This document shows positions 3,059-60,877 of a DNA stretch of 64,000 nucleotides, in pieces. The notes beneath the pieces are model-generated. The model made no database searches. It had not been told where the DNA came from and saw nothing but the letters and a program-made list of their open reading frames with translations. Positions within the stretch are counted from its first letter, which is position 1. Every line of letters starts with the position of its first letter. Source of the DNA: a virus. The stretch is taken from positions 1-64,000 of the IMG/VR virus record IMGVR_UViG_3300009149_000022, one strand, 5' to 3'. The position numbers and the translations under genes are program-made.

Positions 3059-3673
3059 ATGAAAAAAATAACCGAAATTATAAACGAGGCTGAAAAGTCT
3101 AAAAAACAAAAAGAATATCAAGATTTTTTTGATAAAAAGTTGAAAAAATATGGTGTTGAATCCCCCGCTCAATTGTCTGACGAAGATAAGAAAAAGTTCT
3201 TTAACGAAGTAGACAAAGAATGGACGGGTGAAAAGGTAGACGAAAAAATAGTAGAAGATGATTTTGATTCCGAGGCAGACGAAGAATCTGAAATCCTGAA
3301 AGATGACGAAGATGACGAAGATGACGAAGATGACGAAGATGACGATGATGAAGAAGATGAAGAAGATGAAGAACATGACGATGATGAAGAAGATGAAGAT
3401 GACGAAGATGACGATGATGAAGAAGATGACGATGATGAAGAAGAAATTGATGAATCATTGAATGAGGCTGCATCTATGGATAATAAATCAGTAGATAATA
3501 TTGTTAGTGAACTTATAAAATTCAAAAACACACCAGGTGCCTTTGGTCAATTAGTAATGGATATTGTAGAAAGAATATACGACAAAAGTGATGACAAAGA
3601 ACTTACAGTGGCAGTAATTAACAACGCCGTTAAAAACTTATCACAAGTCAGTAAAGAACTTAACAAAAGGTAG
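3059..3673 (+). CDS. Highly acidic putative internal head/prohead core protein
   Basis: Preceded by GATTAAATA (3027-3035). N-terminus MKKITEIINE resembles a capsid-targeting peptide; ~48-residue D/E tract. Confidence 0.6.
   Translation: MKKITEIINEAEKSKKQKEYQDFFDKKLKKYGVESPAQLSDEDKKKFFNEVDKEWTGEKVDEKIVEDDFDSEADEESEILKDDEDDEDDEDDEDDDDEEDEEDEEHDDDEEDEDDEDDDDEEDDDDEEEIDESLNEAASMDNKSVDNIVSELIKFKNTPGAFGQLVMDIVERIYDKSDDKELTVAVINNAVKNLSQVSKELNKR
3302..3445 (+). repeat. Low-complexity GAT/GAC/GAA repeat encoding a poly-Asp/Glu tract
   Basis: Seen directly in the sequence. Confidence 0.95.
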
Positions 3674-3696: not shown

Positions 3697-3729
3697 AAAA
3701 GGAATCTCAAAAAAAAGATTCCTTTTTTT
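3697..3729 (+). terminator. Rho-independent terminator
   Basis: aaaaggaatct/agattcctttt inverted repeat followed by a T run. Confidence 0.75.
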
Positions 3730-3754
3730 GTTGATTAAATAATAAAACAGGTGA

Positions 3755-4732
3755 ATGATTATGAAACACTTATATGAAGGCGGCAAAGCAGTTTCAAATG
3801 TAATGCCAATAAAAGCAGAAGACACAATACCAACACTAAAAGACATAGATAAAAAAATATTAACTAGATTTTTAAAACTTAAAAATAAAGATTGGGCAGC
3901 ATTGGGTTCTACTGGTAAAAAACTACCGGGACAAACTAGTGGTGATATAGATATTGCTATTGATATTAATACTATTGCAAAAAATTATAAAATACCAATT
4001 GATGAGGTTGGTAAAAAAATATTTGATTTATTAGATGCTGCATATCCTAAATTAGATAAAGTTTTTATGAAGGGTTTAGGTATAATTTCAATAGCGTATC
4101 CAGTTAAAGGTAGTAGTGGAAATGTTCAAGTCGATTTAATGTTACAAGACAATATTGATTTTGCTAGATGGATGTTTCACTCACCGGATTTCACTAAACA
4201 AGAATCGGAATTTAAAGGTATTTATAGAACCGAATTATTAAAATCTATTGGTAATGCCGTAACAATTCCTGATATGACAGAATATTGGGAAGATGAATTC
4301 GAAGGTCAATATAAAGGAGAAATCAAGAAATTGGGTAGAATTATGTTAGACCCAAACAATGGTTACAAAAAACAAATAAAGTCGTTTGTAGGTAAAACAG
4401 GTAAACCGGTTAAGACGGGTAAAAGTGAATGGGAAGAATTTATAAGTAAAGACCCGGTAATGATTACAAAATCATTACTTGGTGTTGATGCATCTATAAA
4501 AGATACTAATTCATTCGAAACTGTTTGGAAAGCAATGCAACACAAAAATTTCCCTTGGAAAAAACATATTCCACAAATAGTTTCTTATTTTGTTGATATT
4601 CTAAGTAGAAAGGGGTTACCAATTCCAAGTCAATTAGGAATAAAAGAACAGAATGTAATATCTAAATCTAGTATGAAAAAATTCAAAGAAATCATAAAAT
4701 CAAAAAAATTCAAATCAAATGACATTAACTAA
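3755..4732 (+). CDS. Pol-beta superfamily nucleotidyltransferase-like protein (start possibly 3761)
   Basis: LGSTGKK...SGDIDIAID (GS...DxD) with a third Asp in VQVDLM. Confidence 0.75.
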   Translation: MIMKHLYEGGKAVSNVMPIKAEDTIPTLKDIDKKILTRFLKLKNKDWAALGSTGKKLPGQTSGDIDIAIDINTIAKNYKIPIDEVGKKIFDLLDAAYPKLDKVFMKGLGIISIAYPVKGSSGNVQVDLMLQDNIDFARWMFHSPDFTKQESEFKGIYRTELLKSIGNAVTIPDMTEYWEDEFEGQYKGEIKKLGRIMLDPNNGYKKQIKSFVGKTGKPVKTGKSEWEEFISKDPVMITKSLLGVDASIKDTNSFETVWKAMQHKNFPWKKHIPQIVSYFVDILSRKGLPIPSQLGIKEQNVISKSSMKKFKEIIKSKKFKSNDIN

Positions 4733-4895
4733 AATAACTCTTATAAGTATATTGTTATTTCTAATAGGTATTGGTATACAAACATTAGAAGTAAATAATG
4801 TTGTAAATAACACATCTTTTTTGTATATTCCTTTATATATTATAAGTATTTTAACAGTTCCTTTGTATTCACTTTATCACAAAATAAAAAAATAA
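4719..4895 (+). CDS. Small 58 aa two-helix membrane protein (not in ORF track)
   Basis: Own translation MTLTKITLISILLFLIGIGIQ...FLYIPLYIISILTVPLYSLYHKIKK; it fills the gap between two genes exactly. Confidence 0.6.
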   Translation: MTLTKITLISILLFLIGIGIQTLEVNNVVNNTSFLYIPLYIISILTVPLYSLYHKIKK

Positions 4896-4896
4896 A

Positions 4897-6099
4897 ATGG
4901 CAGGATTACAACACCTATTTGATATTTACAATAAACAAGGGAAAGAATTCATCACAGATTTATTTAGTAAAGAATTAGTCGTTTCTGAAAAACCCGATGC
5001 GTCAATTTTTTCTGTACAACAAAGGGAAGATGGTACTATCGACTTTTTCAAAAGAGATGATAGACAACCAATTTCTGCATTAGATAGAACGATAATATCA
5101 CTATACGAACCACCTATAGAATATTTCGAAAAGAAAATAGGCAATAAAAAACTACCACATAATCTTAGATTCGGTTTCGAATACTTTCAAAACACAAACC
5201 CCGTGGCCATTTCATATGATCGTTTACCTAAAAATGGACTAGTGTTAACACATATGAAAGAACTAGATAATAAAGGTAAAGTTAAAAAATTTATAGATGA
5301 TCCAAAAACACTAATCAAATGGTCCAAATATTTTGATGTCGAAGAACCTTTTATAATTTTTGATGGAAAACTCAGTGAACTTCAAAAACAACAATTAGAA
5401 GAGTTTTTAAAAACACCATTTGAAGAATTAGTTTCTAAATTTCAAACATCTTCTTTTACGAAATATATTATATCTATATTAAACCCCAAATTAAAGAAAA
5501 CCGCGTTAAACAATACAATAGATAAACCAATAGAAGGTTTAGTATTTAAGTTTAATGATGGTGAATATTTAGCAAAGGTTGTAGACCCCTTGTTTACACA
5601 AATGTCTAGAACCAAAGCAATGGAAAGAAAAGAAAACAATAGTAGTTCAGATGAGTTTGCGTTGGTTTTATACACTTTTATCAATTGGGTAGAAGAACAC
5701 GACATTTTTAAAAACATGATTGCTGATGGTAAAAACGAAGACGAAAAATACGTAGATTTGATGACAAGAACATCAAAAAAATTCATTGATGAAAATAAAA
5801 TCTTTTTAAAGGGATTAAACATAAAAAAACCAGATTTTGCAAAAGCACCAGAATTTGCATTAAATACTAAATTGATAAGGAGTCGAGATGTAATCGACTT
5901 TATTAAAAAAAATAAAGAATACGAAGAAGTTTTTAAAATTTTACTTTCTGGTTTCAAGAAAACTAGAAAGAGAAAAACCAACATGATTGATGATAACTTG
6001 AAAAATCAAATAAATGGTGTTGTTAATCAAATTAAAAACATCACATTAAAAACAAACGAAACATTCCTTTCTTTTAAAGATTGGAAAAAAATGCTATAA
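4897..6099 (+). CDS. ATP-dependent ligase/covalent nucleotidyltransferase-fold protein (RNA ligase-like)
   Basis: Motif I-like SEKPDAS, III-like FGFEYF, IV IEGLVFK, V LAKVVD, in the correct order. Confidence 0.65.
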   Translation: MAGLQHLFDIYNKQGKEFITDLFSKELVVSEKPDASIFSVQQREDGTIDFFKRDDRQPISALDRTIISLYEPPIEYFEKKIGNKKLPHNLRFGFEYFQNTNPVAISYDRLPKNGLVLTHMKELDNKGKVKKFIDDPKTLIKWSKYFDVEEPFIIFDGKLSELQKQQLEEFLKTPFEELVSKFQTSSFTKYIISILNPKLKKTALNNTIDKPIEGLVFKFNDGEYLAKVVDPLFTQMSRTKAMERKENNSSSDEFALVLYTFINWVEEHDIFKNMIADGKNEDEKYVDLMTRTSKKFIDENKIFLKGLNIKKPDFAKAPEFALNTKLIRSRDVIDFIKKNKEYEEVFKILLSGFKKTRKRKTNMIDDNLKNQINGVVNQIKNITLKTNETFLSFKDWKKML

Positions 6100-6120
6100 A
6101 CTAAAAATAATATATATATC

Positions 6121-6369
6121 ATGTCAGAAAATAAAAAAGAAATAAAAGAAAAAGAAGAAATTAAAGTAGTGGATGAAGTAATAATTGAAGAGTCTGTTGT
6201 AGAAAAAAACATAGAAAAGGTTTCTGAATCCAAAGAAAAAAAGTCAAAGAAGTCTAGTAACAAAAAAGAAATAGTTAACTTAACACACGATTTAGTAACA
6301 TATTCAGATGGTAGTACTGAAAAGATAACGACAAGAAAACAACATTCAGATTTAAGAAACAAAAGATAA
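6121..6369 (+). CDS. Hypothetical K/E-rich protein
   Basis: 82 aa ORF followed by a terminator hairpin (6386-6417). Confidence 0.55.
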   Translation: MSENKKEIKEKEEIKVVDEVIIEESVVEKNIEKVSESKEKKSKKSSNKKEIVNLTHDLVTYSDGSTEKITTRKQHSDLRNKR

Positions 6370-6449
6370 ATTAAAACTTTTAAGGAAAAGAGGAATTCAT
6401 AAATGTTCCTCTTTTTTGTTTTTATTAAATAAGAAAACATCTGAACACA

Positions 6450-8315
6450 ATGGCAAATGAAGATTTAACAAGAAAAGATATAATAAGTGAACTTAAAAAC
6501 ATGGAATCAGAAAACGATCAATCTAATTTAGAACCTATTAATGTAATAATAGGCAGATTTACACCATTTACTATTGGACATCTTAGTATGGCCAAAGAAT
6601 TGAAAAAGATCAACGACCTTGATTCGGTGTACATATATATAAGAAGTAAAAGTGGTAAAAACTCTAAATTCAGTGACCGATTAGTCACAAACTATATGAC
6701 AGATGTAGTTCAAAAACAAGATTTAGTAAGAGATGCTTGGTCAATGACAGCATCATTCATACCAATTATAATAAAAGAAACACAACGAAGGGGATATAAC
6801 CCCATTCTCATAGGTGCTGGTGAAGACAGAGCAAAATCATATGAAAATATGGCAAAAAGAATGAAAGATATACAAGTAGATCCAGAATTTAAAATACAAG
6901 AACTTAAAGGTAGGATAACGTCAGCGACCGAAGTTAGACAAGCTATAATGGATGATGACAAGAAAAAGTTTATGAAACTTACACCTAAAGAAATTCATCC
7001 ATACTATAAGCAATTACAAGACGAATTAGAAAAATTGAACACTATGATAGAATCAATAAGCGTCGTTGATATAATGGATGGAATAGACCTTACTGTTGAA
7101 GAAGTTGAAAGTATTTTAGAAAGTAATGATGAAGATTTCTTTTCGCATCCCATTATTGTAGAAAGTATTTTAGAACAAGAAATAGAAAATAAAAAAAATG
7201 AGATGAAATTAAACGAAAAAGAGGAAAGTGTGTTATTAGTAATGCCATCAACCTTGACCGATTTAAAAAACTTCAAAAAATGGTTAGATAATTCTGATTT
7301 CTATGCTGAAGACTACGGTGATTATTTTGTGTTTCAAGAAGAAAATATAGATTCTTTGGAAAAGACTATAGAAAAAGAATTATCTAAAAAGAAAATATCC
7401 GTTAGATATGAAATACAAGAAAGTTTTAAAGAAATTATAGAATCTGTTAAATTATCTAGTGATGCTAAGAAATTCATTAAAGCAATGCAAAAAATTAAAT
7501 TAGATAAAGATTTTGCAAAATCATGGATGCCGGGACACAAATATATTTACACTGATGGTACAAAATATTACTTTATTGATTCTGATGGTGACACTATGGA
7601 ATTGAAAAATACAGAAACTTTAAAACATTTGAAAAAGACTTTTGAAAATGTAAATGAAGATCTTTTCGAAAATCCTGAATTTTTACCTAAAAAGGTACAA
7701 GACCTTATTTATGATATGGGTGATGGTACATATGACTATAGGGATTTGAGAAAGTTACAAAAAAAGTTAGAAAAATTAGGATATACGTTTGATTATGGGT
7801 TAGATGCACAACCATATGATTTAAGAAAAATAGATGAAAACTTAGAAGATATAGATTTAGAAAAAATAGTAGAAATTACTAAATTGTCTATGTCCGTTGC
7901 ACACACAAGTGTTTTTGAAAAGGCTTTACAATTTAGAAAATGTGAAATAACATATGAGGATTTACAAGATAAAACAGAAACAAATGTTGTTTCCTTTTTG
8001 GCTAAATTTAACGAAAGTAAATTATTAGACTTTAAAAACTATATAACTGAAATGACGGTTAGTCCAGAATATGGTGCTAAAATTGATAATGCATTATTAC
8101 TATTAGTGAATAGTAATAAACCTATTGTTTGGGAAGATTTTAAATCTTATATGATTAGAACAGAATTCTTTAAGAAAGAATTTAAACCCTTTTTGATGAT
8201 GCAAGGATTATCTGATTATCAAATTGATAGATTTGTTGAAAACATACTTAGGGTTAAGTATCAACACTATACAAATTATTTCAAGGGTACAATCTCGTTG
8301 GAATATACAAAATAA
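6450..8315 (+). CDS. HIGH-class cytidylyltransferase/NMNAT-like domain plus a long modular C-terminal tail
   Basis: GRFTPFTIGH, GEDR and SATEVR motifs; tail rich in I/L/V-x-E sites. Confidence 0.75.
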   Translation: MANEDLTRKDIISELKNMESENDQSNLEPINVIIGRFTPFTIGHLSMAKELKKINDLDSVYIYIRSKSGKNSKFSDRLVTNYMTDVVQKQDLVRDAWSMTASFIPIIIKETQRRGYNPILIGAGEDRAKSYENMAKRMKDIQVDPEFKIQELKGRITSATEVRQAIMDDDKKKFMKLTPKEIHPYYKQLQDELEKLNTMIESISVVDIMDGIDLTVEEVESILESNDEDFFSHPIIVESILEQEIENKKNEMKLNEKEESVLLVMPSTLTDLKNFKKWLDNSDFYAEDYGDYFVFQEENIDSLEKTIEKELSKKKISVRYEIQESFKEIIESVKLSSDAKKFIKAMQKIKLDKDFAKSWMPGHKYIYTDGTKYYFIDSDGDTMELKNTETLKHLKKTFENVNEDLFENPEFLPKKVQDLIYDMGDGTYDYRDLRKLQKKLEKLGYTFDYGLDAQPYDLRKIDENLEDIDLEKIVEITKLSMSVAHTSVFEKALQFRKCEITYEDLQDKTETNVVSFLAKFNESKLLDFKNYITEMTVSPEYGAKIDNALLLLVNSNKPIVWEDFKSYMIRTEFFKKEFKPFLMMQGLSDYQIDRFVENILRVKYQHYTNYFKGTISLEYTK

Positions 8316-8325
8316 ACAAAAAAAT

Positions 8326-8352
8326 AAAAGGGAATCAAAGGATTCCCTTTTT
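8326..8352. terminator. Bidirectional terminator between convergent genes
   Basis: aaaagggaatc-aaag-gattcccttttt. Confidence 0.75.
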
Positions 8353-26812: not shown

Positions 26813-26871
26813 ATAAGTGGTGATTATAAAAAGATTAAATAATATAAATTGTAGAAAAATTAATTCGTAAA

Positions 26872-28794
26872 ATGAAAGATTTATTATTAATAGAAAAATC
26901 CAAATTTTCTGTGAAATCAACAAGTGATTCGGATAAATACACCCTAGAAGGTGTATTTACAGAATTTGATTCAGAAAACCGAAATGGTAGGGTATACACA
27001 AAAAAAGAATTTCAACCACACTTTGATGCACTGAAAAGGGTAGTAGAAGATGGTACTTGTGTTGGGGAACTAGATCACCCAAAACAATTCGAAACTACAC
27101 TCAGAAACGTTTCTCACAAAATAGAAGATATTTGGATGGACGAACAAAACAACCGTGTTATGGGTAGAATAAAACTTTTAGATACGGATGCTGGTAAGCA
27201 AGCAAAAGCACTAATAGATGCTGGAATACCTTTACACATTTCATCAAGAGCCGCTGGTACAGTAACAGAAAACAAAAGTGTTAAAATCCACAAACTATTT
27301 ACATATGACTTAGTTGACACACCGGGTTTTGAAAATGCTCGTTTGAAAAGTAGTGTTAATGAATCGTTTGGATTCTTAAATGAAAGCACCGAACTTGATA
27401 GATTTAGTGATTTTGCTATATATGAAGTTCAAAAACAAATTAAGCAAGATATGAACGAATTAAATAATAAAAATAAAGAAATTGAAAAAATGGATTATAT
27501 CAAGGAAAGTGAATTCAACGCATATACCGATTTCACCAAAGAAGCAATCGAAAGTGTTAAAACGGAAATCAAAGAACTACAAGAAGTGCAAGAAAGTATC
27601 ATCGAACAAAATGATAGTATTGTTGATGAATATAGTAATGCTGATTTCAAAGGAAGGTTAGATACTGTTGATGAAAAATTGACTAGTATTGAAAATAAAA
27701 TTAAAACACTAGAAGAAAGTAAAGATTCTGGTAAAGAATTAACTTCTAGTGACGAAACCGTAGAATATCACGTTGGTGATAAATTCGAAGGGAAAGTGAT
27801 TAGAGCGGTTGAAAAAACTGATGATGGTAAAACAACATTATATTTCGAAAGTGATGATGATGCAATGATTCTAGAAAACAAAATAGAAGAATCATCTTTG
27901 GCAAAACCAGACACTTTACAAGTTGGACAACAATATAAAGACAAAGGAACAATCACATCTATTGAAGTTCAAGATGATGGTGGTACTAAAGTATATATAG
28001 ATTCTATGGATGAACCTATTATTTTACCATCACCATCAAAGGTTGATAATATCATAGATGATAAAACTTTACAAGAAAAGTTAGATAACATGGAAACGAA
28101 ATATGCAGATTTAGAAGCAAAATTCGAAGCTATGATTAAATGGTCTAATCACACAACAGATACAGTTAGTGCATTAGAAAAGTGGTCAGATCACGCTACT
28201 GATACTATTTCAGTGGTTGAAAATTGGTCAGATCATGTTACTGAAACCGTAACAGGTATAGAAAATTGGTCAGATCATGTTACTGAAACCGTAACAGGTA
28301 TAGAAAATTGGTCAGATCATGTTACTGAAACCGTAAGTATGTTAGAATCGGTTGACAATAAAAAAGAAAACGATACCACTAAAATCAACGAAAATAAAAT
28401 CAACGATTTTAAAGCGAGTATATATAATAAACTAGAGAGTATTTTAGAAGATAAGGAGCAAAAGTCTGATAACAACGAATCTCTAAATGAGTCTAAACAA
28501 AAATCAGCAGAAAAAAGTGAAGCACCTTTGTGGATGCAAATGATTCCTGCAAAATACAAGGAAACTTGGGAAAGTTTAGACGAAGTTGAACAAATAAGAA
28601 TCACTAATCGAGCGAATCTTTTTGAGTTCAAAACACAATCTGCAATCAAAGAATTTTGGAACAATGAATTGACAAAAGAAAATTTGATTAAAGAGGAAAA
28701 ATCACAACCGGAATTGAGTGTTGAAGAAAAACAAGCACATCTCAACGAAAAAAGAATGAAAGCTGTTAACGGATATAAGAACCTTTTCGGGTAA
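26872..28794 (+). CDS. gp21: Prohead protease fused to a scaffold/core protein
   Basis: LEGVF, NRNGRVY, GELDHP, ISSRAAG, YDLVDTPGF, followed by ~470 aa of acidic coiled-coil; lies directly upstream of the major capsid gene. Confidence 0.85.
   Translation: MKDLLLIEKSKFSVKSTSDSDKYTLEGVFTEFDSENRNGRVYTKKEFQPHFDALKRVVEDGTCVGELDHPKQFETTLRNVSHKIEDIWMDEQNNRVMGRIKLLDTDAGKQAKALIDAGIPLHISSRAAGTVTENKSVKIHKLFTYDLVDTPGFENARLKSSVNESFGFLNESTELDRFSDFAIYEVQKQIKQDMNELNNKNKEIEKMDYIKESEFNAYTDFTKEAIESVKTEIKELQEVQESIIEQNDSIVDEYSNADFKGRLDTVDEKLTSIENKIKTLEESKDSGKELTSSDETVEYHVGDKFEGKVIRAVEKTDDGKTTLYFESDDDAMILENKIEESSLAKPDTLQVGQQYKDKGTITSIEVQDDGGTKVYIDSMDEPIILPSPSKVDNIIDDKTLQEKLDNMETKYADLEAKFEAMIKWSNHTTDTVSALEKWSDHATDTISVVENWSDHVTETVTGIENWSDHVTETVTGIENWSDHVTETVSMLESVDNKKENDTTKINENKINDFKASIYNKLESILEDKEQKSDNNESLNESKQKSAEKSEAPLWMQMIPAKYKETWESLDEVEQIRITNRANLFEFKTQSAIKEFWNNELTKENLIKEEKSQPELSVEEKQAHLNEKRMKAVNGYKNLFG
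28135..28336 (+). repeat. 42-bp (14 aa) tandem repeat ENWSDHVTETVTGI, about 5 copies, two identical at DNA level
   Basis: 28219-28260 is identical to 28261-28302; partial and degenerate copies flank them. Confidence 0.95.
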
Positions 28795-40427: not shown

Positions 40428-40757
40428 ATGAAAGCATTAAACGAATTTTTGAACGAATCACAAAAACCAGAAAAATATTGGGACAATATTTTTAAAAAGG
40501 CAATAAACAAATTTTCTTATTGGGAAAAATCAGACGAAAAGGCTGACATCGTAAATAGCATTAGACAAGCATATAATGAATTAGAACTTGATGTTCTTAA
40601 AGGTGAAAAGGGTTATGTTGAAATGATTGACAACAAAAAATATTGGGACCAACCAAAAGAATATACTAAATTTGCAACAGACATTTGGAATAAACTCAAA
40701 GGTAATATATGGGCAAAACAAAACGCACTTGAAGATTACTTAGATTGGTTAAAATGA
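40428..40757 (+). CDS. Small late protein with a capsid-targeting-like N-terminus
   Basis: MKALNEFLNES; own late motif (40390); terminators on both sides. Confidence 0.6.
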   Translation: MKALNEFLNESQKPEKYWDNIFKKAINKFSYWEKSDEKADIVNSIRQAYNELELDVLKGEKGYVEMIDNKKYWDQPKEYTKFATDIWNKLKGNIWAKQNALEDYLDWLK

Positions 40758-44877: not shown

Positions 44878-46671
44878 TTAGTTCCCTTTTTTGTTATTCA
44901 ACTCATATATTTCGTTACCACAATCATAGATGCGATAATACCCCCTACTGTGCATAATTTGAACTTCTGTCATTGTATTTGGAAATCCTTGTTCTACTAG
45001 TTTTTGTTTTCTGAATTTGAACCTATTGAATTTAGAATTTCGATATGCCCAATAGTAACCAACAACAGTTTCACCCACAAAATTAAATCCATTTTTTACA
45101 TAAACATTACCATTTGAAATATCCCCATTAGCATAGCTCATTAATTTTTCAAATTCATAGGTTTTTAAAAAATGTGATAATAATTTACTAAACCCACCCA
45201 TCACAACACAATTCAATTTACTACAAAATCTAAGTAATTCTATTTCATTTTTTTTGTTTCTACTTTTACCAAAAGTAACTAAAGTCACTAAACAATTATT
45301 GTGATATAACCCCAATCTAATAGATGAATTACAATATCCCTGAAGGTGATTTTCTATTAGAAAATCTTTACTTTCTTTGTGTGACACTATTCTTATTTCA
45401 CAACACCTTGCACCTATCTTTTTCTTAGTCACCCCTAATTTATTTGATATTAGACTTTTGACTATATCTTGACGTTCTCGCCAATCATCTTCCCATATAT
45501 TTATAAGCAATATGTTATTTTCTTTACAAAGTTTTTTCTTATCTTTATGGTATGTTTTCGATGGTTTATTGAATTCCCCATGCCAATATAGTCCATTAAA
45601 TTCTATACCAATTCGCAAATCTGGTAGATAAATATCTATAGTTTTTCTACTGTTTGGAATTGGTGTGTTTTCTAGAATATTTCCATCATATACTTTTTTT
45701 ACATATTCCGTTAACTCTTTTTCTAGATTCGAAACCCCCGATTTTTCAACAATTTCAAAATATTCAGAATTACAATTTGGACATATACAAACATCACTAT
45801 TAACTAAGTTGTTTGTTGTTGTCCTATACGATGACCAATCACCTAAACAATTTCCACAAGAAAAAGAAACCTTTTCGGACGAATATTTAGTAATTTTAAT
45901 CTTCCATTTGCATAGTTTTTCATTCCAGTTATCTAAAACTATTTTGCGTTTAATTTTTAAATAATTTTTTGGGTTTGGGTATACACTAGTACCATACTTT
46001 TCTGTATTTGTAGATATTCGTTTATTATTTATGTCTTTTTTTTCCTTTTGTGTTTTTTTAGACCACGATTTTTTTATTTTTTCTTTTATTTCTGGTAGTT
46101 GCGTTTTTGATTTTACTCCATACTTTTCTATGTTTGTTTGTGTGTTGCGCATACATACGTCTTTCCATTCTTTAGAGTTGTAGTATATCTTTTTCAATTG
46201 TCTTGCTTCAACAGTATTGGCGGGATTCTCAATCCCATATCTTTCTAATGAAGTATTTTTTCGTTTATCTGATATTTTCTTTAATTCTTCTTCTGATTTT
46301 GATCCCCAAGTGTTTTTAATTTTTTCAACATAGGATGTGTTCTTGTATCTGCTCTTATTATCACAAGATCGTGAACAAAAAGAGTTTACTTTAGAAATTG
46401 TTATTTTACCAGACTTTTTAATTTTATAAGATGCGCTTATTTTCTTCCCACATTCTAAACACTTTGGTTGTTCTAAAATGTCATGTTGCCAATAATAAAA
46501 AATAGTTTTAAAGTTTAGCTCACTTTCTCTTATATCTAATTCGTGTTTACTAGTCCAAATCCATTCTAAAAATGGTTCTAAAAACCCCTTTTTTTCAAAT
46601 GTCTTGTAATCCTTCTTGTTTAATGACGAATCTATTAGTTGGAATTTTTTCTTAAAATCTATATACTTCAT
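44878..46671 (-). mobile_element. Free-standing putative homing endonuclease (Hef-like, PD-(D/E)xK)
   Basis: EKYG/ERYG repeats, zinc fingers, IDIYLP..RIGIEFNGLYWH, IWEDDW, NHLQG, ELLRFC, IYDCG; TATAAATA upstream on the minus strand. Confidence 0.8.
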
Positions 46672-59227: not shown

Positions 59228-60877
59228 ATGATTAAAGCAGATAAATATTATATTCAAAATCTAAAGGAAATACTTTTTCAAAATAACATAGATGAAAACC
59301 CAAGACCATCATACAAAGATGGAACTAAAGCACATACTAAGTTTATTACACAAGTTTTTGAAAAGTATGATATATCAAAAGGTGAATTTCCAATAACAAC
59401 ATTAAGAAATACTGCAATTAAAACAGGTATTAAAGAAATGCTGGTTATCTACCAAGAACAATCAAATAAGTTGGTTGATTTTGAAACTGCTAAATGTGGT
59501 TGGTGGTCGGAATGGATGAACGAAGATGGTGATCTAGGTAGAGCATATTCACATAATATGGAATCACACCGACCTAATGAGATGCAAAAAACTATTGTTA
59601 AGGTTAAACCCAGAATAGTTGATGAAAAATATTCAGAGATGCTGAATATAATGGATATTAACGATACTTCTCTGGTTGCAAATCCGATAAAAATATTTGA
59701 AAATTATCAATTAATTCGTGAAGATAAGAAATCTAGGAAATATGTGTTGCAAAATATATCAACAGGGGAAATACAAGTAATAACGCATAAAACATATAAA
59801 AAGTTGTTAGATGGTGACCCTTCTTTTCTAATAAGAAAAAGTCCATTCTTGTATTGTAGGAATAATGAAGGTGTTGGTTATTTAGGAAATTATAAAACAA
59901 TTAATGGTTATAGTGATGCAACATTAAAATTACTCAGGGATAAATGGGTAAACATGTTAAGAAGATGTTATTCTGATAAATATGAATCACATAACGATGT
60001 TTTTGTACACCAAGACTGGCATAGTTTTGAAAACTTTCTGAGAGATGTTAGAATGCTACCACAATATCATTTAGCAAAAGAAAATAATTTCGATGGGTGG
60101 GATTTAGATAAAGATTACTATGGTAGTAATTGTTATAGTAAAGATACTTGTGTTTTTCTTTGCCATAAGGATAATGTTTTATATGCTAGTTGTTATCCAA
60201 TTAAGGTAACTAAACCTAATGGTAATATTGAACATACAATAAATATTAGAGGTTTTTGTGCTGAACATAATTTATCTAAAACTTGTTTATTGAAGGTTAT
60301 TAATGGTAAACAATCGCACCACAAAGGTTATAAATTTGAAAAGATTATAGATACTGAAAATCTGTATAGATATGAACTTTCTAATAACCAATTAACCTCA
60401 TTATTAGATGGTTTAGAAAATAATCCATTTGGACGTAGACACATTATGTCATTTTGGAATTGGTCTAATATTGATAAGAAGGAACTTGTTGAGTGTGCGT
60501 TTGAAAGTTTATGGACACCTCGAAAAGTTGATGGTGTGATGTATTTAGATATGACATTAACACAGAGAAGTCAAGATGCTATTATGGCAACATATATCAA
60601 TAAAACCCAATATGTTGCATTGCAAATGATGGTTTGTAAACATTTAGGTTTTGAGGTTGGTGTGTTTTCACACATGATTCAAAACTATCATATTTATGAT
60701 AGACATGTAAATGCTTGTAATGAATTACTTGCAAGAAAACCTTTGAATTTTCAACCTTCGATGAAATTAAATGTTCCAAACAAAACAAACTTCTATGAAA
60801 TAAAGATACAAGATTTTGAAATTATCACATCTAAAAACATCAAGAAAATAGAATCAGAATTAGAGATTGCTATTTAG
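59228..60877 (+). CDS. thyA: Thymidylate synthase with an in-frame ~275 aa endonuclease-like insertion
   Basis: FPITTLR, WSEW, RRHIMSFWN, EC, QRSQD, N..QY, HIYDRH; insert at about 59561-60385. Confidence 0.9.
   Translation: MIKADKYYIQNLKEILFQNNIDENPRPSYKDGTKAHTKFITQVFEKYDISKGEFPITTLRNTAIKTGIKEMLVIYQEQSNKLVDFETAKCGWWSEWMNEDGDLGRAYSHNMESHRPNEMQKTIVKVKPRIVDEKYSEMLNIMDINDTSLVANPIKIFENYQLIREDKKSRKYVLQNISTGEIQVITHKTYKKLLDGDPSFLIRKSPFLYCRNNEGVGYLGNYKTINGYSDATLKLLRDKWVNMLRRCYSDKYESHNDVFVHQDWHSFENFLRDVRMLPQYHLAKENNFDGWDLDKDYYGSNCYSKDTCVFLCHKDNVLYASCYPIKVTKPNGNIEHTINIRGFCAEHNLSKTCLLKVINGKQSHHKGYKFEKIIDTENLYRYELSNNQLTSLLDGLENNPFGRRHIMSFWNWSNIDKKELVECAFESLWTPRKVDGVMYLDMTLTQRSQDAIMATYINKTQYVALQMMVCKHLGFEVGVFSHMIQNYHIYDRHVNACNELLARKPLNFQPSMKLNVPNKTNFYEIKIQDFEIITSKNIKKIESELEIAI
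59561..60385 (+). mobile_element. HNH-like endonuclease domain embedded in ThyA (boundaries approximate)
   Basis: GVGYLG, W.NMLRRCY, WHSFENF, WDLDKD, YSKDTCVF...N, plus C-terminal FCAEHNL...HHKGY DNA-binding module. Confidence 0.75.

Follow-up and report, generated by a model that had tools for sequence, protein, structure and literature searches.

A PolX-like nucleotidyltransferase, an RNA-ligase-fold enzyme and an NMNAT-like protein of a T4-like phage as candidate components of an RNA repair module

The analysed stretch of DNA, referred to below as the window, comprises the first 64 kb (positions 1 to 64,000) of the 73.7-kb viral contig IMGVR_UViG_3300009149_000022 from IMG/VR, with a CheckV completeness of 27% and a G+C content of about 28%. 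Its gene content is T4-like and includes a split family-B polymerase, a UvsX-like recombinase, a DnaB-like helicase and SbcCD-like nucleases; the structural genes are represented by those of the portal, prohead protease, major head protein, sheath and large terminase. The subject of the analysis is a group of three genes on the forward strand, encoding a PolX-like nucleotidyltransferase (NTase) of the Pol-beta superfamily (ORF1), an enzyme with an RNA-ligase fold (ORF2) and a protein with an NMNAT-like HIGH adenylyltransferase domain (ORF3), for which a role in the repair of broken RNA is proposed. An earlier note, made from the sequence alone, described three nucleotidyl-transfer folds lying side by side; all of its open reading frames (ORFs) were found at their coordinates, and the catalytic motifs, the structural models of ORF1 and ORF2 and a PF01467 match of ORF3 agree with that description.

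The genes are arranged in two blocks resembling transcription units and bounded by hairpin terminators, the first containing ORF1, a 58-amino acid (aa) hydrophobic ORF, ORF2 and an 82-aa Lys/Glu-rich ORF, and the second containing ORF3 alone. The upstream unit ends with an intrinsic-terminator-like hairpin (3697..3726, +; an 11-pair stem followed by a T run), after which lies GATTAAATAATAAAACA (3733..3749, +), a promoter-like motif common to structural genes, probably of the late type, with an exact copy of GATTAAATA in it. ORF1 (3755..4732, +; 325 aa) has a probable start MKHLYE at 3761 and is followed by the 58-aa ORF of the ORF list, with two apparent membrane helices (4719..4895, +). ORF2 (4897..6099, +) consists of an NTase domain (residues 1-236) and a helical C-terminal domain (247-400), and carries the C-terminal motif ETFLSFKDW; the 82-aa ORF (6121..6369, +) and a terminator-like hairpin (6384..6417, +; a 13-pair stem followed by a T run) close the block. 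ORF3 (6450..8315, +) is preceded by TATTAAATAAGAAAACA (6423..6439, +), a one-base variant of the motif upstream of ORF1, with TATTAAATAAG as the one-base variant of GATTAAATA, and a two-way terminator, recognized as a hairpin in the sequence (8326..8351), separates it from the convergent gene of a GT2 glycosyltransferase.

Residue conservation in ORF1 was assessed in an alignment of 59 sequences, namely, ORF1 and 58 homologues. Residues G51, S52, D64, D66 and D127 are invariant (59/59) and represent the signature of Pol-beta nucleotidyltransferases, hG[GS] together with three catalytic Asp residues. The best structural matches of the AlphaFold2 model (pLDDT 91) are Tth PolX (Z 10.1, 163 residues aligned), Pol beta (Z 9.9, 176-192 aligned), Pol lambda (Z 9.7) and TdT (Z 9.7), and nearly the whole chain of the PolX of African swine fever virus (ASFV) is aligned as well (163/176 residues, Z 9.4). 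The alignments to family-X polymerases span the palm and thumb (163-193 residues); TUTases, poly(A) polymerases, CD-NTases and MenT are aligned only over the palm of about 100 residues, with Z of 8.3 or less. The 8-kDa lyase and fingers domains, containing helix-hairpin-helix (HhH) elements, are absent from ORF1, the alignments beginning at Pol beta residue 142 or above, and only about 45 residues precede the palm. No relevant match to Pfam or NCBIfam, and none to PF10127, was detected in the 59 sequences searched; ORF1 has no PHROG match, and single-sequence and profile searches against PDB sequences found nothing. The family comprises 1755 representative clusters at 50% identity, 1401 of them at E 1e-10 or better. 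Judging by the best matches of the model, ORF1 is predicted to be a Pol-beta-superfamily enzyme closest to the palm and thumb of family-X DNA polymerases.

Domains of the ORF1 type were also found as two or three tandem copies per polypeptide (P0233, P0234, P0238, P0240 and P0248), each copy beginning with LxEGG; the copies may divide labour between them, for example by having different nucleotide specificities. In loci L009-L081 a conserved 181-aa protein without a family match is encoded directly upstream of ORF1 (e.g., L037:6520-7065). It always lies between the helicase and ORF1, and about half of its members begin with a peptide resembling the T4 capsid targeting sequence (CTS; MxIKSFNEF...).

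Ligase motif I (KxDG) of ORF2 is conserved among its 63 homologues: E31 is invariant, K32 is present in 62/63, and position 34 is occupied by D in 44 and by N in 17 of them. Position 35 is A in the window, with G in 42 and A in 21 homologues. E213 (E in 36, D in 27) and the invariant K227, near which D230 and P231 are conserved, lie in regions that we take, by position, to be ligase motifs IV and V. The model (pLDDT 89) ranks with RNA ligases, namely, T4 Rnl2 (Z 11.6, root-mean-square deviation 3.5, 190 residues aligned), NgrRnl of Naegleria (Z 11.5), REL1 (Z 10.4) and Trl1 (Z 10.2); DNA ligases reach Z of 7.7 or less and capping enzymes score lower. The model contains no OB domain, and no clear structural match was obtained for the helical C-terminal domain. 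ORF2 of the window has no family match of its own, since no Pfam match, including PF09414, was found at E 0.1 or better, and single-sequence and profile searches against PDB sequences gave nothing. Among the homologues, 22/63 match PF09414 (RNA_ligase) at E 0.01 or better, and the scores of L081 (34.2 bits) and L035 (30.5 bits) lie above the family's cut-off of 27 bits. Judged by model and alignment, ORF2 is an RNA-ligase-fold enzyme that keeps the nick-sealing motifs. Membership of the ligase in DUF6267 was considered and rejected, with 0 matches among the members of the ligase alignment.

In one relative (L007:7157-9143), the ligase gene consists of two ORFs about 360 nucleotides (nt) apart, with the interruption after residue 36, just beyond motif I. 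The second piece (P0012) has a Pfam intein match, and P0015 and P0019 match PF14890; the break resembles an active-site intein that is split or degenerate.

Residues 33-113 of ORF3 match PF01467 (E 1.3e-6) and phrog_395 within the HIGH domain (about 28-200). The motifs of the window protein are GRFTPFTIGH and TSATEVR, most relatives having GRFQPFHNGH and TSGTEVR. When a profile of 32 HIGH domains was compared with PDB, the top matches were archaeal/NadM nicotinamide mononucleotide (NMN) adenylyltransferases (1f9a, E 2e-7; 1ej2; 2qjt), mainly over motif 1. The scores of the domain against NCBIfam equivalogs are 18-33 bits, with cut-offs of 127-181. The suggested resemblance of ORF3 to NadM-type enzymes thus holds for the motifs and does not extend beyond them: on sequence evidence, the NMNAT likeness of the N-terminal domain appears real but weak. 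For the remainder of the protein (200-621), consisting of a variable middle part and about 150 conserved C-terminal aa (470-621), no Atlas match and no detectable relatives of known function were found. In the fusion proteins of four loci (L063, L074, L076 and L081), the HxGH histidines and the SGTEVR motif are lost while the HIGH domain is retained, and the domain may be inactive as an adenylyltransferase, or repurposed, in these proteins.

Relatives of ORF2 are represented in IMG/VR by 378 sequences, and the locus counts given here refer to the 80 best loci among them. A homologue of ORF1 is encoded immediately upstream of the ligase in 71/80 loci, and in about 70/80 the ligase and HIGH domain form one protein of 630-690 aa with an acidic linker; the same ligase-HIGH fusion is carried by the 462-kb huge phage LR756500. 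The window therefore holds a split form of the system. This arrangement, in which the ligase, a short charged ORF and a HIGH protein ending in a long variable tail are encoded separately, is limited to the window's close clade (L002-L008). Homologues of the 82-aa Lys/Glu-rich ORF (69-126 aa) were found in this clade only, and its position is that of the acidic linker in fused relatives. The small membrane protein that had been counted in the cluster does exist as an ORF of 58 aa, but jackhmmer finds only the window copy and no counterpart is present in the 80 loci; it was rejected as a member of the module, being absent from all relatives, where ORF1 abuts the ligase.

A search for longer relatives of ORF1 extends the association further, having yielded giant polyproteins in which an ORF1-type domain comes last. 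The 1636-aa polyprotein P0236 begins with a HIGH NTase and the PolyA_pol head of a CCA-adding enzyme with its RNA-binding region, continues with DUF5661, an AAA_33 P-loop kinase and an HD domain, and closes with an ORF1-type domain; P0237 is similar. Three tandem ORF1 domains are combined with a HIGH domain and Nudix in P0233, and two ORF1 domains with Nudix, with no HIGH match recorded, in P0240 and P0248. Locus L080 encodes a polyprotein with the RNA-binding region, HD and a C-terminal ORF1 domain, and 2 nt separate its gene from that of a stand-alone ligase downstream. Across three different architectures the HIGH domain remains part of the system, and both the ORF1-ligase and the ligase-HIGH pairings persist despite deep divergence (identity of 35-40%). 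Exceptions to the link exist: LR756501 and LR756504 have a ligase that occurs alone, and Lak megaphages have an ORF1 homologue that does so. Examination of gene neighborhoods agrees with the proposal that the three genes act together; that their products form one functional module is strongly supported by comparison of the sequences, because the adjacency is conserved and gene fusions recur.

Among the roles that had been offered for the trio, RNA or tRNA end repair is the best fit, given that a CCA-adding enzyme, a PNK-like kinase and an HD phosphoesterase occur fused to ORF1-type domains, with the ligase next to them. The substrate of CCA-adding enzymes is tRNA; a kinase and a phosphoesterase are the classic end-healing pair and, together with a ligase, make up an RNA repair toolbox. 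Nucleotidylation of host proteins, another of the suggested roles, received no support. We propose, with a probability of about 0.5, that the trio is the split version of a heal-and-seal kit, widespread in phages, that mends broken RNA, the most likely substrate being tRNA cleaved by nucleases of host defence.

In the proposed order of steps, ORF1, as a minimal PolX-like nucleotidyltransferase, would add one or a few nucleotides back onto the 3'-OH of damaged RNA, and ORF2, as an ATP-type RNA ligase acting via lysine 32, would seal the break. The first step is modelled on the role shown in other systems for RlaP (PF10127; T4 NrdC.11), a Pol-beta NTase associated with RNA ligases in jumbo phages (PMC7824862), which, ahead of sealing, extends damaged RNA by 1-2 nucleotides at the 3'-OH (bioRxiv 10.64898/2025.12.29.696909). 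Of the five large related genomes carrying the module that were used for genome-wide gene checks (four of them CheckV-complete), four encode no RlaP. The NMNAT-like domain of ORF3 would supply or recycle an adenylyl cofactor: it could form NAD+ from NMN and ATP, sustaining NAD-dependent steps during NAD depletion, or run in reverse, converting NAD+ and pyrophosphate to ATP for the ligase, or it could transfer AMP to the 5'-phosphate of RNA. In the window's clade, the motif of structural genes lies upstream and ORF1 has a short leader resembling the T4 CTS, so that the enzymes may be produced late and, after loading into the head, enter the host together with the DNA.

A number of observations weigh against RNA repair as the role of the trio. 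The closest folds of ORF1 are family-X DNA polymerases, and in distant relatives the module lies among genes for single-stranded DNA-binding protein, primase, helicase and PolB, a setting that also fits DNA repair. The window's ORF1 and ORF2 themselves are without a Pfam match. No tRNA or tmRNA genes were found within 8 kb in 48/49 loci, and none adjoin the module in the window. The NAD-dependent RNA 2'-phosphotransferase KptA is encoded in only one of the five genomes; a link through KptA/Tpt1 was rejected on this ground, and the connection of NAD to RNA repair is weak because of it. The fusions could reflect co-delivery of unrelated activities instead of one pathway. As regards delivery, the module of most relatives is located inside the replication gene cluster without a promoter or terminator of its own, the ORF1 leader in the window has only 6-8 residues, and TerL begins with a similar peptide.

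The fold of ORF1 and the position of the module in distant relatives bear directly on a second explanation, by which the genes encode a kit for gap filling and nick sealing in the phage genome, similar to base-excision repair, with ORF1 as a minimal PolX, ORF2 as the sealer and the NMNAT-like domain as a source of cofactor. The alignment with almost all of ASFV PolX and with the palm and thumb of Pol beta, Pol lambda and TdT is consistent with it, as are the conserved gene order of distant relatives (RuvC-like, gp32, primase, helicase, then the module, then split PolB) and the weak PF01068 matches in 4/63 ligase homologues. A viral precedent is PgVPolX, which joins a PolX core to an NAD+-dependent ligase for base-excision repair (PMC5537341). 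However, the ligase fold ranks with RNA ligases and contains no OB domain, the fusion partners of ORF1 domains are enzymes of tRNA and RNA (CCA-adding enzyme, PNK-like kinase, HD), and ORF1 is devoid of the lyase and fingers domains. All five large genomes also carry a separate canonical DNA ligase (PF01068 or PF01653), because of which ORF2 was rejected as the replicative DNA ligase. DNA repair is accordingly regarded as unlikely, and RNA repair is ranked above it.

The chemistry of the enzymes permits a third explanation, namely, that instead of repairing nucleic acids the module synthesizes or degrades a nucleotide that serves as cofactor or signal; NAD-capped RNA, AppN compounds and immune second messengers are examples. 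The reaction of NMNAT, transfer of AMP to a 5'-phosphoryl nucleotide, equals step 2 of ligases; the Pol-beta fold is common to CD-NTases and alarmone synthetases, which match ORF1 with a lower Z of 6-7; and Nudix is present in some polyproteins. This explanation appears the least probable of those weighed here, given that the best matches of ORF1 include the PolX thumb, absent from cyclases, that the ligase retains all nick-sealing motifs, and that no signalling effector or sensor was seen in the neighborhood of the module.

The motif upstream of ORF1 bears on the time of expression. Fifteen exact copies of GATTAAATA were found in the window, compared with 3.8 +/- 1.9 expected; examples are located at 26833, 28795, 50629(-) and 56448. 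The copies are oriented toward genes and lie 20-46 nt upstream of the ORF at 3059, ORF1 and the genes of the prohead protease, major head protein, tail sheath and large terminase. The claim that the motif is common to structural genes was therefore confirmed, and late transcription is what it would imply: GATTAAATA is probably the core of the late promoter of this phage, unlike TATAAATA of T4. The terminator and motif upstream of ORF1 are conserved in the close clade. For the early/middle motif AATAAGTATAA, no statistical enrichment was detected in the window.

Peptides resembling those of head proteins, also pointed out earlier, are present, and they are more than chance because their counterparts at the N-terminus of ORF1 and at the end of the ligase domain are conserved family-wide. 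Leaders of the ORF1 family are most often 10 aa long (74/181), with the consensus M[LK][RK]FKEFIKE (MLRFKEFIKE), and end in [LIVMF]xE in 172/181, just before the invariant GG that opens the fold; the T4 CTS is MKTYQEFIAE (PMC8442874). Compared with this 10-aa mode, the leader of the window's ORF1 is only MKHLYE. Internal ORF1 domains of polyproteins retain LxEGG, and the ligase domain ends with a conserved ES...[ST]FxE[FYW] motif. A T4-type prohead protease gene is present in the window (26872-28794). The leader pattern fits loading into the head and trimming by the protease, which is plausible but unproven. The view that the enzymes are packaged and injected is favored only indirectly by the structural-gene motif and by CTS-like N-termini, and it is not favored by the replication-cluster position of most relatives.

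Two further ORFs of the window carry similar leaders. The one directly upstream of ORF1 (3059-3673, +) encodes a 204-aa protein with a long Asp/Glu run, weak PHROG matches to head-protease/scaffold families and the N-terminus MKKITEIINE, a 10-residue leader resembling the T4 CTS and ending in IxE; GATTAAATA is located 30 nt upstream. It is a candidate internal head or scaffold protein. The other (40428-40757, +; 109 aa) begins with the 10-aa CTS-like leader MKALNEFLNE, is preceded by a terminator and GATTAAATA, and is a candidate packaged internal protein.

Across the neighboring ORFs of the loci, CTS-like N-termini are enriched about five-fold (144 vs 27.8 +/- 5.2 in composition-matched shuffles) and concentrated in a few families. 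Such enrichment is consistent with a further explanation, in which independent counter-defence activities, namely, NAD+ resynthesis, RNA end addition and ligation, each directed against a different host system, have no common pathway and are merely delivered together, in line with the concept of polyvalent packaged phage proteins (PMC5512222). The sets of domains in the polyproteins vary, including Nudix and tandem ORF1 copies, and NAD metabolism is represented in the genomes: a NadV-like phosphoribosyltransferase is encoded in all five, and two of them have no PF01467 match other than the ligase-fused HIGH domain, which therefore could be the NMNAT of those genomes. Mere co-delivery seems rather improbable, somewhat more so than DNA repair, since the pairings described above are kept at 35-40% identity and in three architectures, which is more than co-delivery requires.

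Combining packaging with RNA repair, one may picture a capsid-loaded, protease-trimmed kit injected with the DNA, in which the NMNAT-like domain couples the NAD+ and ATP pools to the RNA ligase and the new PolX-like family restores lost RNA nucleotides, acting pre-emptively against defences that cut tRNA and deplete NAD. Sealing could then use NAD+ when ATP is attacked, and NAD+ could be rebuilt when it is itself attacked. This extended scheme is doubtful, at a level comparable with mere co-delivery.

Phages are known to counter host anticodon nucleases by means of RNA-repair systems, and no paper describing a module of a ligase, an NMNAT-like domain and a PolX-like enzyme was found in the literature. 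The module contains two uncharacterised pieces, a PolX-like family without a Pfam model and the repeated physical joining of an RNA-ligase fold to an NMNAT-like domain. If functional, the latter would connect RNA repair with NAD/ATP cofactor supply, two fronts of the conflict between phage and host that have so far been treated apart. If the enzymes are packaged in the head, the paradigm of T4 internal proteins would be extended to repair enzymes of abundant environmental huge phages. The ORF1 family could also serve as a minimal polymerase or tailing enzyme.

Mobile elements were noted elsewhere in the window. In a 549-aa ORF (59228-60877, +), thymidylate-synthase matches are confined to residues 381-545 and HNH-endonuclease matches lie at 226-379; it appears to be the gene of a thymidylate-synthase-type enzyme invaded by, or fused to, a homing endonuclease. 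A 597-aa homing/HNH endonuclease is encoded near the tail-sheath gene (44878-46671, -), and the genome also has GIY-YIG and intein elements.

The proposed module shares features with several known systems. The leader of the ORF1 family, ending in [LI]xE, resembles the CTS of T4 internal proteins and Alt; unlike the T4 CTS, similar peptides are also located at the C-terminus of the ligase and inside ORF3, places where the T4 CTS is not known to act. With the archaeal/NadM NMN adenylyltransferases, the HIGH domain shares the GRFQPFHxGH and SGTEVR motifs and the PDB profile matches named above, but only the motif regions align, HxGH is lost in some lineages, and the domain occurs with a fused ligase or, as in the window, with a 420-aa extension behind it.

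Pairing or fusion of a minimal PolX core with a ligase is known from two large viruses, ASFV and Phaeocystis globosa virus (PgVPolX), the latter also showing a link to NAD (PMC5537341), and ASFV PolX, like ORF1, contains neither the 8-kDa lyase nor the fingers domain. Those systems act in DNA base-excision repair and have DNA-ligase folds, whereas the module described here has an RNA-type ligase and tRNA-enzyme fusion partners.

ORF1, a predicted Pol-beta-superfamily NTase, shares with RlaP both this superfamily and a genomic association with an RNA ligase in phages. It differs from RlaP, composed of an NTase and a helical domain, in the PolX-like palm and thumb with a three-stranded sheet and, together with its 58 homologues, in the absence of a PF10127 match; RlaP systems have no NMNAT-like partner, whereas one is present here.

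In comparison with tRNA repair by T4 Pnkp and Rnl1 (and Rnl2), no kinase or phosphatase gene accompanies the trio in the window, the ligase's C-terminal domain is unmatched, and the PolX-like NTase and NMNAT-like domain are additional. The NTase domain of the ligase nevertheless resembles Rnl2 (Z 11.6), in relatives of the module a PNK-like kinase and an HD phosphoesterase join the NTase and the ligase, and the logic suggested for the whole is the heal-and-seal logic of the T4 enzymes and of Pnkp-Hen1 of C. thermocellum.

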